A DNA stretch of 18,234 nt, taken from the UHGV virus genome UHGV-0285855. One strand, given 5' to 3'. Shown piece by piece: positions 10,553-16,732 of this stretch. This DNA is from a virus. The translations under genes and the position numbers were made by a program. The notes beneath the pieces are model-generated. The model saw only the letters and a list, made by a program, of their open reading frames with translations. It was not told where the DNA came from and searched no databases. The first letter of the stretch is position 1; each line of letters opens with the position of its first letter.

Positions 10553-11103
10553 CCCTGACCCCGCATCAGCGCGCCCTGTTGCAGTTACTGCCTGACGGGC
10601 TGGCATGGGACAAGCGTCCGTCATCCGTACTGGCATCGTTATGCCTGGGCCTCAGCCATTCGACAGCGCGTGTATCCTGGACGGGTAAACAGCTGCTTGC
10701 CGAGCGTTTCCCTGACACGTCTCGCCTGCTGCTGGAAGACTGGGAGCGTTATCTCGGCCTTCCTGAATGTGATATGGCCGGAGCCACCATAACGGAGCGA
10801 CAGCGTTATGCCGGAAATAAATACCGGATGAAGCCCTCGCTGAACCGTGAATTTTATATCCGGTTTGCGGCGGAGTTTGGGTATCAGATTGACATTCAGC
10901 CTTCACCGGATTCGCAGTGGGTCAGTATTGTCACGATTAACAGTGAAACCGACTACCGGAATATGAATGTGCTGGATGATATTCTCACGCCGCTGCGTAT
11001 TTATGAAGGCGGTGCGCTGGAATGTATTCTGAATCGTTATAAGCCTGCATGGCAGACGTTTATTTACGTGTATGCAAACAGCCACGAAGAGGAGAATATT
11101 TAA
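10543..11103 (+). CDS. Tail/baseplate protein Mu gp48-like (DUF2313-type)
   Basis: 186-aa ORF overlapping both neighbours; located immediately upstream of the tail fibre. Confidence 0.55.
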
Positions 11104-11984
11104 TGTTTCATGTTGATAATAATTCCGGCGTGGCGAATATGCCTGCGCTGGCACCGGCGCAGAGTAATACCACCACCTGGTTTACCGAAGGTGACGGACA
11201 AAAAGGTATCAGCTGGATTGGTCAGGACTGGCTGAATATTCTCCAGGCCGAACTGCTGAATATTCTGGCTGAAGCCAGTATTCAGCCGGATAAGGCGCAG
11301 TTAAACCAGCTTACGCAGTCCATTAAAGCCATTATCGCTGCGAATGCCTTTTCCCGGAAAAATAACCTGAAAGAAATTGCTGATGCCGGAACGAAAGCAC
11401 AACAGCTTGCCCGTGGTTATCTTGGTCTGGGGGCGCTTGCCACAAAAAACAGTCTTGGTCCCGGTGACGTTAATGCCCTGGCGAAGGATCAGAATCTGGC
11501 CGACCTGGAGAATAAGGGAACCGCCCGTAATAATCTGGATGTTTACAGCAAAAGCGAGGGTGATAACCGTTACCTGCGCAGGGAGCAGAACGGCGCAGAC
11601 ATTCCGGATAAAGGGGCTTTTATCGATAACGTCGGTTTACGGGAAACGGTAAACAAGGCCGCGAACGCACTGCCATCGAATGGAACGGCCGTTGCCGCGA
11701 ACAGGCTGGCAAATGCCCACACAATTAATGGGGTTCCCTTTGACGGGACCATGGATATCACTATCTCATCAGGAACAGTAACCGCTGTAAGGCTGGGGTC
11801 GGTGACAGCACATATGCCCGGAACATGGGAAAGCTGGGATCTTAATCTGGGGGGCGGTAATGTTATTACCGGAATTAAAGTACAGGATGTCGGTAAGAAT
11901 ACGGCAGATAACGTCGGCGGCGTGTATTACCGGCCGTTGCAGTATCTGTTAAATGGGGCATGGGTGACGGCAGCGAGTATATAA
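11103..11984 (+). CDS. Tail fibre protein: constant N-terminal part plus the currently fused variable C-terminus
   Basis: Start ATG at 11103 overlaps the gp48 stop (TAATG). The reading frame passes in frame through the left crossover site at ~11632 into the invertible segment. C-terminus ...[19 protein letters not shown] is paralogous to the alternative cassette end. Confidence 0.8.
11620..11645. promoter_or_regulatory. Left gix/hix-like 26-bp recombination site of the invertible segment
   Basis: TTATCGATAACG-TC-GGTTTACGGGAA. The inner half-site is identical to the reverse complement of the inner half of the right site; the outer half differs; the central dinucleotide TC is the complement of GA at the right site. 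Confidence 0.6.
11632..11737. repeat. Left copy of 106-bp perfect inverted repeat (IR-L)
   Basis: Base-by-base comparison: 11632-11737 equals the reverse complement of 12845-12950; imperfect extension to ~11749. Confidence 0.9.
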
Positions 11985-12015: not shown

Positions 12016-12537
12016 TTACTGTGGCTGTTCAGGCCATTTAATGGCGTTAAATTCAGCTTCAGTTTTAATGGCGGGTAATACCATTTTTTTCACCTGACTG
12101 ATGTATGCCATCCATCTGGTAAGTGCGGCTCTGTCTTCATCACTGATGGTGCCCAGTTGTAGTTCTGTTCTCCAGTCATTAATTTTTTCATATGCCTGAT
12201 TAAGATATGACTGGCGCAGTTCTTCCGCTTTTTTGTCGTAGTTGACCGGAAGCGGTGAGATGACGCCATTATCAAACTTCCAGTTACCTGAAATATCCGT
12301 GCCTTCAGGGAGTTCATCGGCCTCAACCACAGAGAATCCCACAGGATACAGCGCCGAGGCGTCCTGTGATATTGAGCAGATAATGCCGCTGTCAGGTGTT
12401 ATGCAAAGTTTATATTTTTTGGTGAATAATGGCAGGGACTCGTAGAAATCCTTACCATCTTCACTCTGAAAATACTGAACATTATTACCATATGGCATAT
12501 TTTCAGGATAATAACGGGTTATATTTTTTAGTTCCAT
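12016..12537 (-). CDS. Tail fibre assembly chaperone (Tfa / Mu U-like)
   Basis: 173-aa ORF; C-terminus ...SDEDRAALTRWMAYISQVKKMV...IKWPEQPQ fits the conserved Tfa C-terminal signature; AGGAGG upstream on the minus strand. Confidence 0.8.
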   Translation of the reverse strand: MELKNITRYYPENMPYGNNVQYFQSEDGKDFYESLPLFTKKYKLCITPDSGIICSISQDASALYPVGFSVVEADELPEGTDISGNWKFDNGVISPLPVNYDKKAEELRQSYLNQAYEKINDWRTELQLGTISDEDRAALTRWMAYISQVKKMVLPAIKTEAEFNAIKWPEQPQ

Positions 12538-12588: not shown

Positions 12589-12949
12589 TTATAACTGAGA
12601 TACCGTAATCCATGAGCCATTTATGTATATCTGTAGTGGGCGAAAATAAGCAAAATCGCCACTGTTATCCACTTCACCCGCTATAGATAACGCCGTCATT
12701 ACACATCCTCCTATACCGATTTTTCCCCCGAATGGCATTAATACAGACATTTCTGAACCCAGTCTCACATTCTGCACATAACGGGCATCACCATCCAGCA
12801 GAGTCATACCAGAAGTGATGTTTATATCCTGCGTTCCGTCAAAAGGAACCCCATTAATTGTGTGGGCATTTGCCAGCCTGTTCGCGGCAACGGCCGTTCC
12901 ATTCGATGGCAGTGCGTTCGCGGCCTTGTTTACCGTTTCCCGTAAACCG
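12589..12949 (-). CDS. Alternative tail-fibre variable C-terminal cassette (promoterless; expressed only after inversion)
   Basis: The minus-strand frame reads ...[31 protein letters not shown]...YFRPLQIYINGSWITVSQL; the first ~35 codons are encoded by IR-R and are identical to the current fibre. Confidence 0.7.
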
Positions 12950-12950
12950 A
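12845..12950. repeat. Right copy of 106-bp perfect inverted repeat (IR-R)
   Basis: Reverse complement of 11632-11737. Confidence 0.9.
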
Positions 12951-12962
12951 GGTTTTCAGGAA
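12937..12962. promoter_or_regulatory. Right gix/hix-like 26-bp recombination site
   Basis: TTCCCGTAAACC-GA-GGTTTTCAGGAA, a near-palindromic 26-mer closely resembling the gix consensus, at the outer edge of IR-R. Confidence 0.65.
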
Positions 12963-13027
12963 AGCCCCTGTTCTCCCCGTTTTATTCATCATGCGACAAT
13001 TCCGGCTTTTTATAATAAGGAGATCGT

Positions 13028-13600
13028 ATGCTGATTGGGTATATCAGGGTGTCAACAAATGACCAGAATACGGCGCTACAGAGAAATGCGCTGGAATGTG
13101 CAGGATGTGAGCTGTTTTTCGAAGACAGAATAAGCGGTAAGACAAGGGAACGTCCCGGCCTTAAACGCGCATTAAAGCGACTCCGGCCAGGGGATACCCT
13201 GCTGGTCTGGAAACTGGATCGTCTTGGACGTAGTATGCAGCACCTTGTCCTTTTAACAGAAGAACTCCGGCAGCGCGGCGTTAACTTCCGCAGCATTACG
13301 GACAATATTGATACATCCACTCCCATGGGACGTTTCTTTTTCCATATAATGGGCGCACTGGCGGAAATGGAGCGGGAACTCATTATTGAACGTACACGCG
13401 CGGGTCTTGCTGCTGCCCGTGCTCAGGGGCGTCATGGCGGCAGACCTCAGAAACTGACAGGGAAAGAGCGGGAGCAAATCGCCCGTTTGCTGGCTAATGG
13501 CGAGTCCCGTAAACAAATCGCACTGATATTTGATATTGGCCTGTCCACCCTTTATCGTTATTTTCCTGCCTCACCGGCTCCGTCACCAAAAGTACCGTGA
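13028..13600 (+). CDS. gin: Serine-recombinase DNA invertase (Gin/Hin/Cin/Pin family)
   Basis: 190 aa; N-terminus MLIGYIRVSTNDQNTALQRNAL... with catalytic Ser in RVST; resolvase-type catalytic domain plus C-terminal helix-turn-helix (LSTLYRYF); AAGGAG 5-10 nt upstream of the ATG; adjacent to the invertible segment. Confidence 0.9.
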   Translation: MLIGYIRVSTNDQNTALQRNALECAGCELFFEDRISGKTRERPGLKRALKRLRPGDTLLVWKLDRLGRSMQHLVLLTEELRQRGVNFRSITDNIDTSTPMGRFFFHIMGALAEMERELIIERTRAGLAAARAQGRHGGRPQKLTGKEREQIARLLANGESRKQIALIFDIGLSTLYRYFPASPAPSPKVP

Positions 13601-13685
13601 CGCTTTTTTGAATTTCCGCAAAACACATATTTTTCAGCGGTCGCTATTCTGACTCTGTTTAATTCAGAAACAGGCAGAAAAGACG

Positions 13686-15734
13686 ATGTCAGACTCCCAG
13701 TGGAAAATGCTCTCCGCCATGCCCGGAGAGTTTTCAGTCAAGGTTGCCGGTGGCACGGTGGCATTTATTGAAAGTCCTTTCCGGCCTTCGGGTAATAAAG
13801 GCGGGATCACCTTCGCAGACTGCGTGATCCGCTTCAGCACGAAAGAGCCATTATGGATAATGCCGGTATCAGGTAATCCCAGCGCAGAAATCACCAGTTC
13901 AGGCGTGACCGGTATCATTCCGATCACATCTGACGTGGCCGGAACACTCACACCTTCTGACTGGAGTGCACCGGATAACGCCGGATCTTCTGGTGGCACA
14001 AATGGCAGCAGTACAGAGCCGGAGTATTACTATGTGCTTCCACTGACCGGGCAGTCCAACGGGATGGCCTACGGTGAAGGGCTTCCGTTGCCGGATTCAT
14101 TTGACCGTCCTGAACCGCGCATTAAGCAACTGGCCCGACGCAGTACGGTAACGCCGGGTGGTGAAGCCTGTTCTTATAACGATGTCATTCCCGCAGACCA
14201 CTGTCTGCATGATGTGCAGGACATGAGCGGGATGAACCACCCGAAAGCTGATCTGGCAAAAGGCCAGTACGGGACTGTCGGTCAGGGGCTGCATATTGCC
14301 AAAAAACTGCTGCCTTATATTCCGCAGAATGCCGGGATACTTCTGGTTCCCTGCTGTCGTGGTGGTTCGGCATTCACCGCCGGGGCTGATGGCTCATTCA
14401 GTGAGGCCAGCGGTGCTTCCGCTGATTCTTCACGCTGGGGAGTTGGTAAACCCCTGTATCAGGACCTGCTCAGTCGCACCAGAGCGGCGCTGGCGAAGAA
14501 CCCGAAAAATAAACTTCTGGCTGTGGTATGGATGCAGGGAGAGGCAGACCTTGCTTCAGGAAGTCAGCAGCATAATGGTTTATTTACAGCCATGGTTCAG
14601 CAGTTCAGAACCGACCTGTCTCCGCTTGCTGCGCAGTGCGTGAGTGGAAATGCTGCCACGGTGCCGTGGATTTGTGGTGATACCACGTATTACTGGAAAA
14701 ACACGTATGCCACGCAGTATGAAACAGTCTATGGCGCATATAATAATCTGACCGCACAGAATATTTTCTTTGTGCCGTTCCTGACGGATGAGAATGGACA
14801 GAACACGCCAACGAATGCTCCGGCGGAAGACCCGGATATTGTGGCTGTCGGGTATTACGGTGCGGCATCCCGTACCCAGGGCAGTTTTGTCTCCACACAG
14901 CGTGACAGCCATTTCAGCTCATGGGCACGCAGGGGCATCATTTCTGACCGTCTGGCCTCAGCCATTCTGCTCCATGCGGGACGCACGGCTGAAGTTATGG
15001 GCGGACAGGCCGTGCCGCCGGATGAAAAACCATCCCCTGACACGCCATCAACGCCGTCAACGGACGGGAAATCAATGACGACGCTGTTTTCTTACCGCGC
15101 ATCGGAGTCAGGCGGAGCACTGACGCCACAGGGCTGGGGGGCGGAAGGCGGTAGTGCTGCTGTTGTGGATGATGTCGGTGCCAGCGGGGGCAAGGCGCTG
15201 AAGCTGACAAAACAGACCGGAAAGTCATGGTTTATGCAGCATGATGCCGGTAATGGTGCCGACCTGCTGGAAAAAGGTGGCCTTGTCAGCTGTCGTTTTA
15301 AACTTGATGGCGCGCTTACGGCTAATCAGTACGCACTGGCGCTGTACTGGCCGGTTTCTTCGCTGCCTCAGGGCGTCACACTGGAAGGTAATGCCGGCCA
15401 TAACCTGCTGGCATCGTTTTACGTTCAGAGCGATGCCACAGACCTTAACGTGATGTACCACAAGGGTAATCCAGACCAGAACACGAAGCTGGGTTCATTC
15501 GGTGCATTTAATAACGAATGGCATACGCTGGCATTCCGTTTTGCCGGTAACAACAGTATTGAGGTAACGCCGGTGATTGATGGACAGGACGGGACACCGT
15601 TCATGCTGTCGCAGTCTCCGGTAGGGACACTGGCGGCAGACAAGTTACGCCTGACCGATATCACCAGTAATGCAACGTATCCGGTACTGATTGACAGCAT
15701 TTTGGTGGAAGTGAATAACCCGTCAGCAGGATAA
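13686..15734 (+). CDS. Multidomain carbohydrate O-acetylesterase, SGNH/SASA (sialate-O-acetylesterase-like, NanS-like) family
   Basis: 682 aa; GQSN block at aa 122-125 (nt 14049-14060) in place of GDSL; WMQGEAD block; DSH near the C-terminal part of the catalytic domain; extra N-terminal (~115 aa) and C-terminal (~230 aa) domains. Confidence 0.65.
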   Translation: MSDSQWKMLSAMPGEFSVKVAGGTVAFIESPFRPSGNKGGITFADCVIRFSTKEPLWIMPVSGNPSAEITSSGVTGIIPITSDVAGTLTPSDWSAPDNAGSSGGTNGSSTEPEYYYVLPLTGQSNGMAYGEGLPLPDSFDRPEPRIKQLARRSTVTPGGEACSYNDVIPADHCLHDVQDMSGMNHPKADLAKGQYGTVGQGLHIAKKLLPYIPQNAGILLVPCCRGGSAFTAGADGSFSEASGASADSSRWGVGKPLYQDLLSRTRAALAKNPKNKLLAVVWMQGEADLASGSQQHNGLFTAMVQQFRTDLSPLAAQCVSGNAATVPWICGDTTYYWKNTYATQYETVYGAYNNLTAQNIFFVPFLTDENGQNTPTNAPAEDPDIVAVGYYGAASRTQGSFVSTQRDSHFSSWARRGIISDRLASAILLHAGRTAEVMGGQAVPPDEKPSPDTPSTPSTDGKSMTTLFSYRASESGGALTPQGWGAEGGSAAVVDDVGASGGKALKLTKQTGKSWFMQHDAGNGADLLEKGGLVSCRFKLDGALTANQYALALYWPVSSLPQGVTLEGNAGHNLLASFYVQSDATDLNVMYHKGNPDQNTKLGSFGAFNNEWHTLAFRFAGNNSIEVTPVIDGQDGTPFMLSQSPVGTLAADKLRLTDITSNATYPVLIDSILVEVNNPSAG

Positions 15735-15740
15735 AAAAAT

Positions 15741-15773
15741 GCCGCCGGTAAGGGAAAACAAGAAACCGGCGGC
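15741..15773 (-). terminator. GC-rich hairpin with a 7-nt T-run on the minus strand (intrinsic terminator for leftward transcription; weak for the plus strand)
   Basis: Stem GCCGCCGGT (15741-15749) pairs with ACCGGCGGC (15765-15773); A7 at 15732-15738 becomes U7 immediately 3' of the hairpin on the minus strand. Confidence 0.35.
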
Positions 15774-15867
15774 AAATGTCGTCATATCCAAAGCAAAACA
15801 TGCAGGACGATTTTTTAACCAACAGGTATTAACGATGTCAACACCATATCAATAACCGGGAGGGATA

Positions 15868-16050
15868 ATGACATTTTTACAGCTTATTTTATTGTATTTC
15901 TGCACGGTGGTATGTGTCTTATATCTGGTGAGCGGTGGTTATAAGGCCATCAGAAATTATGTTCGCCGCAAAATTGATGACGCAGCAGCCGAAAAGCTCA
16001 GTAAAACAGCGCAGGCAACTCCGCTCCCAAAAGACCCGACCCAGCCCTGA
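15868..16050 (+). CDS. Small membrane protein (single N-terminal TM helix), function unknown
   Basis: 60 aa; hydrophobic stretch LQLILLYFCTVVCVLYLVSGG; GGGAGGG 5 nt upstream of the ATG. Confidence 0.5.
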   Translation: MTFLQLILLYFCTVVCVLYLVSGGYKAIRNYVRRKIDDAAAEKLSKTAQATPLPKDPTQP

Positions 16051-16085
16051 TTGCAGGGCTTTATTCCCGCATAAGGAGGATATAC

Positions 16086-16340
16086 ATGCCAGAAATTAAA
16101 GGCACCGTCACTGAAGACCTGGTAAAACAGGCACTGTATTCCGGTGAAGTAAATAAGTTGCTGAAAGCGCAAGTCCGCAAGGATTTTGAGGCACAAATCG
16201 ACACTTACGTTGATGAAGTGCTGGCAAAACTTATTGGACCAGCTGCTGCGGCCAGTGATGCTGATAATGAGCCGAAAACCGAAGCACAGCCAGAACAACC
16301 AGACCCGGCTCAGCCCGGAACTGACAGCACCATGATGTAA
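16086..16340 (+). CDS. Hypothetical small acidic protein
   Basis: 84 aa; AAGGAGG 7 nt upstream of the ATG; followed by an intrinsic terminator. Confidence 0.5.
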   Translation: MPEIKGTVTEDLVKQALYSGEVNKLLKAQVRKDFEAQIDTYVDEVLAKLIGPAAAASDADNEPKTEAQPEQPDPAQPGTDSTMM

Positions 16341-16346
16341 CAATAC

Positions 16347-16379
16347 AAACCGGCAGTTTCTCCTGTCGGTTTTATTTTC
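16347..16379 (+). terminator. Rho-independent terminator
   Basis: Stem AAACCGGCAG / CTGTCGGTTT (one G-U pair), loop TTTCTC, followed by TATTTTC. Confidence 0.55.
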
Positions 16380-16415
16380 ATGGGCGCTTTATATACCAAT
16401 CAGAGGACGATAATC

Positions 16416-16616
16416 ATGGACAAGAATAAAAAGCAACCTGATACCAAAGGCCTGGAAATATTAAGCACAGAAATTATCAATGCGCTACGTTCAGGACTTG
16501 ATGAAGATACATTACAGGATCGAAACTTCACCACCGCAATGTGGATAGCTATGCAGATCCTGTGTACCCCAAGATGCGCTATTTTTGCGGTTCGTGAAGG
16601 TCAACTGACTCGCTGA
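16416..16616 (+). CDS. Hypothetical small protein
   Basis: 66 aa from ATG 16416 (GAGGA 8 nt upstream); the longer ORF from 16380 lacks a ribosome-binding site. Confidence 0.4.
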   Translation: MDKNKKQPDTKGLEILSTEIINALRSGLDEDTLQDRNFTTAMWIAMQILCTPRCAIFAVREGQLTR

Positions 16617-16732
16617 TTGCACGAATTACATCAGAAAATCAGGCGTTCCATAACTGCATAGCTGATGAATCACCTCCCTGAATCATTGTTGATGACTTTT
16701 CAATCTATTTGTTGTATCAATTAAACAAATCG

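Follow-up and report, generated by a model that had tools for sequence, protein, structure and literature searches.

Why does a Mu-like prophage carry a large gene between its DNA invertase gene, gin, and the regulatory gene com, and for whom does the product of that gene work? The question is raised by the virus genome UHGV-0285855, a stretch of 18,234 nucleotides (hereafter the window) that holds the right-hand portion of a Mu-like prophage and encodes its tail sheath, tape measure and baseplate proteins, Baseplate_J and Mu Gp48 (Pfam) among them. In phage Mu itself, com directly follows gin after a gap of 94 nt; that Mu has no gene at this place had been stated in an earlier, sequence-only reading of the window, and the Mu sequence confirms it. 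Here, the interval holds an intact open reading frame (ORF) that begins with ATG and encodes 682 amino acids (aa) (Table 1). We propose that its product is probably a Ser124/His409 sialate O-acetylesterase with a glycan-targeting C-terminal domain, which stays in the cytoplasm until it is released by lysis and then makes mucus sialic acids usable by Escherichia coli. The protein also carries an N-terminal domain for which we found no counterpart among the known relatives of the enzyme in lambdoid phages, and the main alternative that we weigh below is that this domain attaches the enzyme to the phage particle.

The identity of the enzyme is supported by several matches. In a PDB sequence search, residues 109-428 matched E. 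coli NanS (YjhS), a 9-O-acetyl-N-acetylneuraminate esterase (PDB 3PT5, E 6e-121); the Pfam family SASA was found at E 2.4e-12 (47.4 bits, with a cutoff of 24.8), and the protein was assigned to phrog_143 at E 5e-301. The sequence-only reading had proposed a three-domain esterase of the NanS type at this position on a Mu-like prophage, and the ORF, the gene order and these Pfam, PHROG and PDB matches, which lie far beyond chance, agree with it. RefSeq already lists such proteins as “DUF6645 domain-containing protein” or “sialate O-acetylesterase.” The catalytic GQSN block lies exactly where that reading had placed it, and the WMQGEAD and downstream DSH blocks were located as well. In NanS, catalysis depends on Ser19 and His301 without a classical Asp (PMC9063846). 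When the 11-residue offset of the crystallised chain is taken into account, these two residues align with S124 and H409 of the present protein, both of which are invariant across the 18 homologues in our alignment. The DSH motif is present as described, but its Asp is not a conserved catalytic residue, and we rejected DSH as a catalytic Asp-His block. The block here reads RDSH, with Arg406 at -3 and Asp407 at -2 from H409; because Asp407 stands at -2 rather than -3, is replaced by Ser in NanS (S-S-H), and is Ser or Ala in the RSSH/RASH block of active NanS-p alleles of Stx2a phages (PMC10462455), it should not be taken as the acid of a triad. The protein lacks the canonical SGNH Ser-Asp-His triad with a D-x-x-H block, and it has the NanS-type variants of both blocks (G-Q-S-N for the Ser, R-x-S-H for the His). 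The esterase and C-terminal domains have a ratio of nonsynonymous to synonymous substitution rates (dN/dS) of ~0.12-0.18.

Both flanking domains had been called domains of unknown function, and a domain search of the two ends had been suggested. This description holds for the N-terminal domain, which has no family match, but not for the C-terminal domain, which corresponds to a jelly-roll of solved structure: residues 464-678 matched the crystallised C-terminal domain of a phage NanS-p (PDB 6YP6, E 5e-95), and the Pfam family DUF6645 (PF20350) was found at E 1.7e-68. Four aromatic residues, Y510, Y515, Y540 and F611, have been proposed to bind sugar in the phi24B protein's C-terminal domain, and the first three are kept here as Y549, Y554 and Y579. 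In some Mu-type alleles from IMG/VR (L041, L043-L045), the C-terminal domain is only 41-45% identical to that of the window, so that the lectin-like domain, too, exists in swappable types within the Mu-like lineage; types of this domain have likewise been reported in Stx phages, as CTR groups. The lambdoid NanS-p of phi24B, gp84, is proteolytically processed after its release, and the cleavage site corresponds in position to linker 2 of the present protein (bioRxiv 10.64898/2026.04.10.717836).

Judged by these matches, the 682-aa protein is a member of the known NanS-p family with a differing N-terminal domain; the esterase core and the C-terminal domain belong to that family, and it is the N-terminus that is new here. 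Lambdoid NanS-p proteins of 636-657 aa are built from DUF1737, SASA and a C-terminal domain. The homologues we collected fall into two classes. Those of class A (678-691 aa) have no DUF1737 (PF08410) and can be aligned along the whole query, while those of class B (640-657 aa) have DUF1737 and can be aligned only from about residue 112, with up to 94% identity; one lambdoid protein of this class is 94% identical across 85% of the query. The N-termini of the two classes are unrelated and merge at “EPEYYYV” (alignment A1). No Pfam family, DUF1737 included, matched aa 1-115 at E <= 0.1. Residues 1-80 are predicted to be all-beta, unlike the helix and three strands described for DUF1737, and may be described as a cupin-like beta domain of ~80 aa; no informative fold match was found for it. 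In the predicted structure, the score of the predicted local distance difference test (pLDDT) falls below 50 at residues 81-120, which include the first linker.

Relatives of the N-terminal domain are scarce. A phmmer search against 1.84 billion cluster representatives gave 4 hits, 2 of which are fragments of this same protein. A third (P0005) is a Salmonella fragment in which an N-terminal domain of ~30% identity is again joined to a GQSN esterase; the last of the hits (P0006, E 4e-4) was set aside, since it looks unrelated. A word-indexed search returned nothing beyond fragments of the same proteins, a scan of the GTDB representative genomes did not find the domain, and a profile search that covered every ORF in the window and in the E. 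coli CI5 prophage revealed no paralogue. In the searchable literature, within which Rangel et al. 2016 and Saile et al. 2016 did not fall, we found no report on a Mu-type NanS-p, its N-terminal domain or DUF6645. Compared with the allele of Mu_JNE082796, a Mu-like prophage inserted in an Stx2c phage, the domain has 0.25 nonsynonymous (pN) and 0.77 synonymous (pS, saturated) differences per site, and pN well below pS indicates purifying selection on the domain. Linker 1, in the same comparison, is 38% identical with a pN of 0.53.

Wherever the neighbourhood of the N-terminal domain could be read, the domain was fused to a NanS core and lay in a Mu-like prophage downstream of gin. In IMG/VR, all 34 loci with this domain are Mu-like, and none has DUF1737. 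Further copies occur in E. coli CI5, whose prophage is complete and encodes MuA, MuB, Gam, Mor and gpT; in Mu_JNE082796; on two metagenome contigs; in the Salmonella prophage that carries the ~30% identical version; and on an O157:H7 chromosome, in the order gin, DUF6645 protein, DUF1378, DUF826, com and mom. A survey of 5426 complete E. coli genomes placed this Mu-like family's com region in 233 of them (~4%), O157:H7 strains being among those sampled. DNA of the window-type N-terminal domain was found in 28 of the 5426 and that of the Sp18/JNE type in 205. These two counts add up to the 233 genomes with the com region, which suggests that nanS-p is fixed in this Mu-like family, the comparison being one of totals and not of genome lists; likewise, the figure of ~233 full-length copies is derived from DNA matches to the N-terminal domain, not from a gene-by-gene check.

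The gene is accompanied by two small ones, and the order nanS-p, DUF1378, DUF826 is found in both Mu-like and lambdoid contexts; in the window, the module ends in a terminator. The DUF1737 form sampled here belongs to a lambdoid prophage, where it is flanked on one side by the antiterminator Q and on the other by the genes for holin, lysozyme, Rz and terminase; again DUF1378 and DUF826 follow. The gene in the window does not have this lambdoid late-region location, with Q/stx upstream and the lysis genes downstream, and yet it retains the linkage to DUF1378 and DUF826. One sign of exchange is a block, from codon 112 of nanS-p to the inside of the DUF1378 gene, that is 94.1% identical at the DNA level to a lambdoid prophage. 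Against Mu_JNE082796, in turn, identity is 92-99% along the backbone and only ~70% in the stretch that runs from gin through nanS-p. Taking the shared block and the divergent stretch together, the enzyme and lectin part has been exchanged between unrelated prophages, while the N-terminal domain stays with the Mu-like backbone. On these alignments, recombination between co-resident prophages exchanges the esterase and lectin parts. In the sequence-only reading, the gene had been taken for a moron at the right-end hotspot of Mu. It is indeed an extra gene relative to Mu; however, it is not a single-gene insertion but the first gene of a three-gene module, and the genome counts suggest a fixed part of this Mu-like family rather than a sporadic moron.

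Some further observations on this mosaic locus may be added. Over the whole stretch of gin, nanS-p, DUF1378 and DUF826 (12803-16668), the window is only 70-78% identical in DNA to the prophage L002, compared with 92-99% for the tail genes and the right end on either side. Other divergent islands in the otherwise ~95% identical virion module are the tail sheath (75.5% aa identity) and a DUF2635 protein (66.7%). In two IMG/VR contigs, L015 and L020, Mu baseplate genes and a Mu-type nanS-p are joined to lambdoid holin and lysozyme genes after a divergent DUF1378; gin was seen in L015 only, and L020 continues with an inverted DUF826, com and mom. These junctions could be a real rearrangement through the shared nanS-p/DUF1378 block, or assembly chimeras.

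We suggest the following mechanism for the action of the enzyme. A Mu-like prophage of the O157 Sp18 type carries the gene as the first of the module common to lambdoid prophages. In the protein, Ser124 of GQSN would serve as the nucleophile and His409 as the base, without a classical Asp, as in NanS. The substrates would be the O-acetyl groups of 5-N-acetyl-9-O-acetylneuraminic acid (Neu5,9Ac2) and of O-acetylated mucin sialoglycans, and the carbohydrate-binding C-terminal domain would target the esterase to such glycans. Because a Kyte-Doolittle scan of the whole protein in 19-residue windows (maximum 1.16) revealed neither a signal peptide nor a membrane segment, the enzyme is most likely released only when the phage is induced and lyses the cell, either free or particle-bound. 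The lysogens that survive would then be able to use the de-O-acetylated sialic acid, as has been shown for lambdoid NanS-p. Seven NanS-p enzymes of EDL933 and five of O104:H4 act on Neu5,9Ac2 and on mucin (review PMC8065619), and lambdoid NanS-p allows lysogens to grow on Neu5,9Ac2 (PMC8065619, PMC10462455).

As for the time of expression, the lambdoid nanS-p is a late gene that is co-induced with stx (PMC8065619, PMC10462455). Here, the Mu-type C-box TTAT-N6-ATAA has 6 matches in the window versus 3.6 expected, which is chance level, and none of these lies upstream of nanS-p; alignment of the upstream regions revealed only the short common stretch GAATT..CGCAAAA. After these two comparisons and a scan for sigma-70 promoters, no promoter had been recognised upstream of nanS-p. 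Read-through from gin is possible, given that gin ends in a weak hairpin (-6.6 kcal/mol, z -0.5).

Several points weigh against the mechanism suggested above. No sigma-70-like promoter was recognised by the scan upstream of nanS-p, which bears on the timing of expression. The fourth residue proposed to bind sugar, F611, is replaced by Leu649. In the literature, activity has been demonstrated for lambdoid alleles only, and for the Mu-type protein we infer activity, release by lysis and benefit to the host. Finally, gp84 of phi24B, a NanS-p, is reported to be an abundant virion protein that decorates the capsid, with DUF1737 hexamers sitting on the capsid hexons (bioRxiv 10.64898/2026.04.10.717836). 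Since a lambdoid homologue is reported as a virion protein, a view of NanS-p as cargo that serves the host alone may fall short even for those proteins on which the family was founded.

This last finding gives indirect support to an alternative that the sequence-only reading had also named, a virion-associated enzyme; however, gp84 binds through DUF1737, which the present protein lacks. We regard the following form of this alternative as possible, if rather less than even in its chances: the N-terminal domain could be the counterpart of DUF1737, anchoring esterase and lectin to the Mu-like head or possibly tail. An enzyme displayed in this way might modify mucin or capsule, for example when the particle dwells in or crosses mucus, or might de-O-acetylate surface glycans before adsorption. 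Such a role is compatible with the same esterase chemistry; what differs is where and for whom the enzyme works. Besides the capsid location of gp84 through DUF1737, several features would fit a displayed enzyme. The N-terminal domain alone differs by phage type while the remainder is up to 94% identical, and the domain occurs only in Mu-like contexts (34/34 in IMG/VR as well as CI5, O157, Mu_JNE082796 and Salmonella) and the DUF1737 forms in lambdoid ones. It is under purifying selection, has a flexible linker behind it, and the protein has no signal peptide; SASA-type domains also occur in phrog_25867, a PHROG annotated as a tail protein. On the other hand, the DUF1737 anchor itself is absent, the N-terminal domain has no detectable similarity to it and a different predicted fold, and we found neither a paralogue elsewhere in the prophage nor an informative fold match. 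The domain also showed no signal of co-variation with the capsid: two sublineages have 98.4% identity in gpT, the major head protein, and only 59.5% in their N-terminal domains. Moreover, the sharp domain boundary can also be explained by recombination, which needs homology, and homology begins at codon 112. We therefore put forward only tentatively the broader idea that NanS-p proteins are modular virion-display enzymes with an anchor specific to the phage type, namely DUF1737 for the capsids of lambdoid podoviruses and siphoviruses and the ~80-aa beta domain for the particles of Mu-like myoviruses; we consider this somewhat unlikely as it stands. If it were true, the esterase/lectin payload would be swapped freely between co-resident prophages, each phage keeping its own anchor, and Mu-like E. 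coli phages, including O157 Sp18, would carry a mucin/sialoglycan de-O-acetylase on their particles.

Instead of acting after lysis, the enzyme could also be made in the lysogen as that of a strict moron, by read-through from the constitutive gin promoter or from a weak promoter of its own, and bring a metabolic gain without induction, the N-terminal domain then serving folding, oligomerisation or stability. The position of the gene, immediately downstream of gin and in its orientation, the weak hairpin at the gin end and the module's own terminator would suit such an arrangement, and for lambdoid NanS-p it is documented that lysogens grow better on Neu5,9Ac2. However, without an export signal an uninduced cell could not expose the enzyme to extracellular mucin, and free Neu5,9Ac2 would have to enter the cytoplasm, whereas the chromosomal NanS is described as periplasmic (PMC3658417). 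The late, stx-coupled induction of lambdoid nanS-p and the lack of a sigma-70-like promoter also speak against expression of this kind, which we consider unlikely. It is very improbable that the gene is a decaying passenger, a scar of recombination with no current role. The mosaic locus, the many fragments of such genes in the databases and the two chimeric IMG/VR junctions could be read in that way, but the frame of 682 codons is intact, the catalytic residues are invariant, dN/dS is low throughout the esterase and C-terminal domains, pN lies far below pS in the N-terminal domain, and full-length copies are apparently present in ~233 complete E. coli genomes. The selection analysis already disfavours decay. 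Release of a sialate O-acetylesterase at lysis thus stands as our preferred account of this gene, with attachment to the particle as a possible addition to the same chemistry.

The surroundings of the module are those of a Mu-like right end, with a difference in the modification gene. Two inverted repeats of 168 nt (11606-11773 and 12809-12976), which are 88% complementary, bound an invertible segment that contains only a tail-fibre assembly gene (12016-12537) and an alternative fibre C-terminus (12589-12807), both on the minus strand. As oriented in the window, the assembly gene is directed away from the gene for the fibre; E. coli CI5 has the segment inverted, with both genes running the same way. 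The sequence-only reading had placed a com region downstream, and a Com gene is indeed found there, but its partner is a Dcm-type methyltransferase gene rather than mom, with the Com gene overlapping its start. The cluster of GATC sites upstream of com, which forms the Dam/OxyR region of Pmom in Mu, is conserved, and this suggests re-use of a Com/Dam-type control circuit for another DNA-modification enzyme. A full-length match to the region 16801-18007 was present in 10 of the 233 E. coli genomes with this Mu-like com region, and other sampled relatives have com-mom in place of com and the Dcm-type gene. Between the module terminator and com lies an ORF of 78 aa (16380-16616) that has no match in Pfam, PHROG or NCBIfam; the O157 relative has a different hypothetical gene, on the minus strand, in its place. 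The right end of the prophage is placed at ~18172 from the alignment to Mu_JNE082796 with its annotated insertion duplication. Just behind nanS-p, the GC-rich hairpin is terminator-like only for transcription of the minus strand, because an A-run precedes it on the plus strand and the T-run is on the minus strand; it falls within the block common to lambdoid prophages. No RNA family was found in the window with Rfam.

Table 1. Features of the nanS-p locus and of the right end of the Mu-like prophage in the window (UHGV-0285855).
Feature	Position (nt)	Strand	Basis or remark
Tail-fibre gene	11049-11984		
Gin-type serine DNA invertase	13028..13600	+	phrog_125 E 1e-94; Resolvase + HTH_7
nanS-p-like gene, three-domain sialate O-acetylesterase (predicted)	13686..15734 incl. 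stop	+	ORF translation, Pfam, phrog_143, PDB 3PT5/6YP6
N-terminal domain, aa 1-80	13686..13925	+	Lineage-specific, predicted all-beta, in place of DUF1737
Linker 1, aa 81-111, Gly/Ser/Thr-rich, predicted disordered	13926..14018	+	Low pLDDT; 38% identity to the JNE allele
NanS-like SGNH/SASA esterase core, aa 112-430	14019..14975	+	3PT5 match
GQSN, codons 122-125	14049-14060; Ser124 = 14055-14057	+	Translation
WMQGEAD, aa 282-288	14529-14549	+	Translation
DSH, aa 407-409	14904-14912; His409 = 14910-14912	+	Translation
Linker 2, aa 431-463, Pro/Ser/Thr/Asp-rich	14976..15074	+	Length varies among alleles (alignment indels)
C-terminal lectin-like jelly-roll domain (DUF6645), aa 464-682	15075..15731	+	6YP6 match, Pfam
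Block 94.1% DNA-identical to lambdoid prophage L005	14019..15995	+	blastn; codon 112 of nanS-p to inside DUF1378 gene
GC-rich 10-bp hairpin just 3' of the nanS-p stop	15740..15775		RNA fold -22.2 kcal/mol, z -4.07
DUF1378 small hydrophobic protein	15868..16050	+	PF07125 E 7e-35
DUF826 protein, third gene of the module	16086..16340	+	PF05696 E 2e-15
Intrinsic-terminator-like hairpin and U-run closing the module	16347..16380	+	Terminator scan; RNA fold -14 kcal/mol, z -4.05
Com-family zinc-ribbon regulator	16801..16989	+	PF10122 E 6e-13; RefSeq annotation of CI5 copy
Dcm-type C5 cytosine methyltransferase, at Mom's position in Mu	16955..18007	+	PF00145 E 1.6e-42; TIGR00675

These results matter because NanS-p enzymes make the O-acetylated sialic acids of mucus available to pathogenic E. 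coli as food. Mu-like prophages with the same enzyme and a different, lineage-locked N-terminal domain occur in ~4% of the complete genomes of this species, which amounts to a natural experiment. If this domain were a second virion anchor, the display of glycan esterases would be a general phage strategy that extends beyond Stx phages; if it is not an anchor, the enzyme would simply raise the host's nanS-p gene dosage by one more copy. The block that is 94% identical to lambdoid prophages also marks the gene as a place where unrelated prophages of one chromosome recombine.

How does the locus compare with known systems? Virion-borne SGNH deacetylases, such as the tailspike esterase G7C gp63.1, are tail fibres with known anchor domains. 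The idea of a particle-borne O-acetylesterase acting on a surface glycan is the same, but virion association is only hypothesised for the present protein. Among the closest known relatives are the lambdoid NanS-p proteins, such as 933W L0105/z1466 and phi24B vb_24B_21/gp84, with which it has in common the esterase core and the lectin-like C-terminal domain, the GQSN, WMQGE and R-x-S-H blocks, DUF1378 and DUF826 downstream, and the absence of a signal peptide; the amino acid identity is 54-70% when phage records are compared and reaches 94% for some alleles from E. coli prophages. It differs from them in that DUF1737 (aa 3-53 in 933W) is replaced by the unrelated all-beta domain and a longer linker, giving a length of 682 aa versus 636-657 aa, and in that the carrier is a transposable Mu-like myovirus prophage with the gene after gin, whereas the lambdoid gene lies between Q/stx and the holin gene. 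With E. coli NanS/YjhS (3PT5), the protein shares the catalytic fold and the Ser-His pair without the canonical SGNH Asp. NanS, however, is a single domain (a chain of 337 residues in 3PT5) encoded in the NanR-regulated nanCMS operon and described as periplasmic (PMC3658417), while the prophage-borne protein adds domains at its N- and C-terminus and has no export signal. Finally, the locus follows the right end of phage Mu in its order of tail fibre, invertible segment and gin, then com, which overlaps a DNA-modification gene, and the right end, as well as in the GATC cluster, and departs from it in having a Dcm-type gene instead of mom and, where Mu has nothing between gin and com, ~3.2 kb that hold the esterase module and a small ORF.

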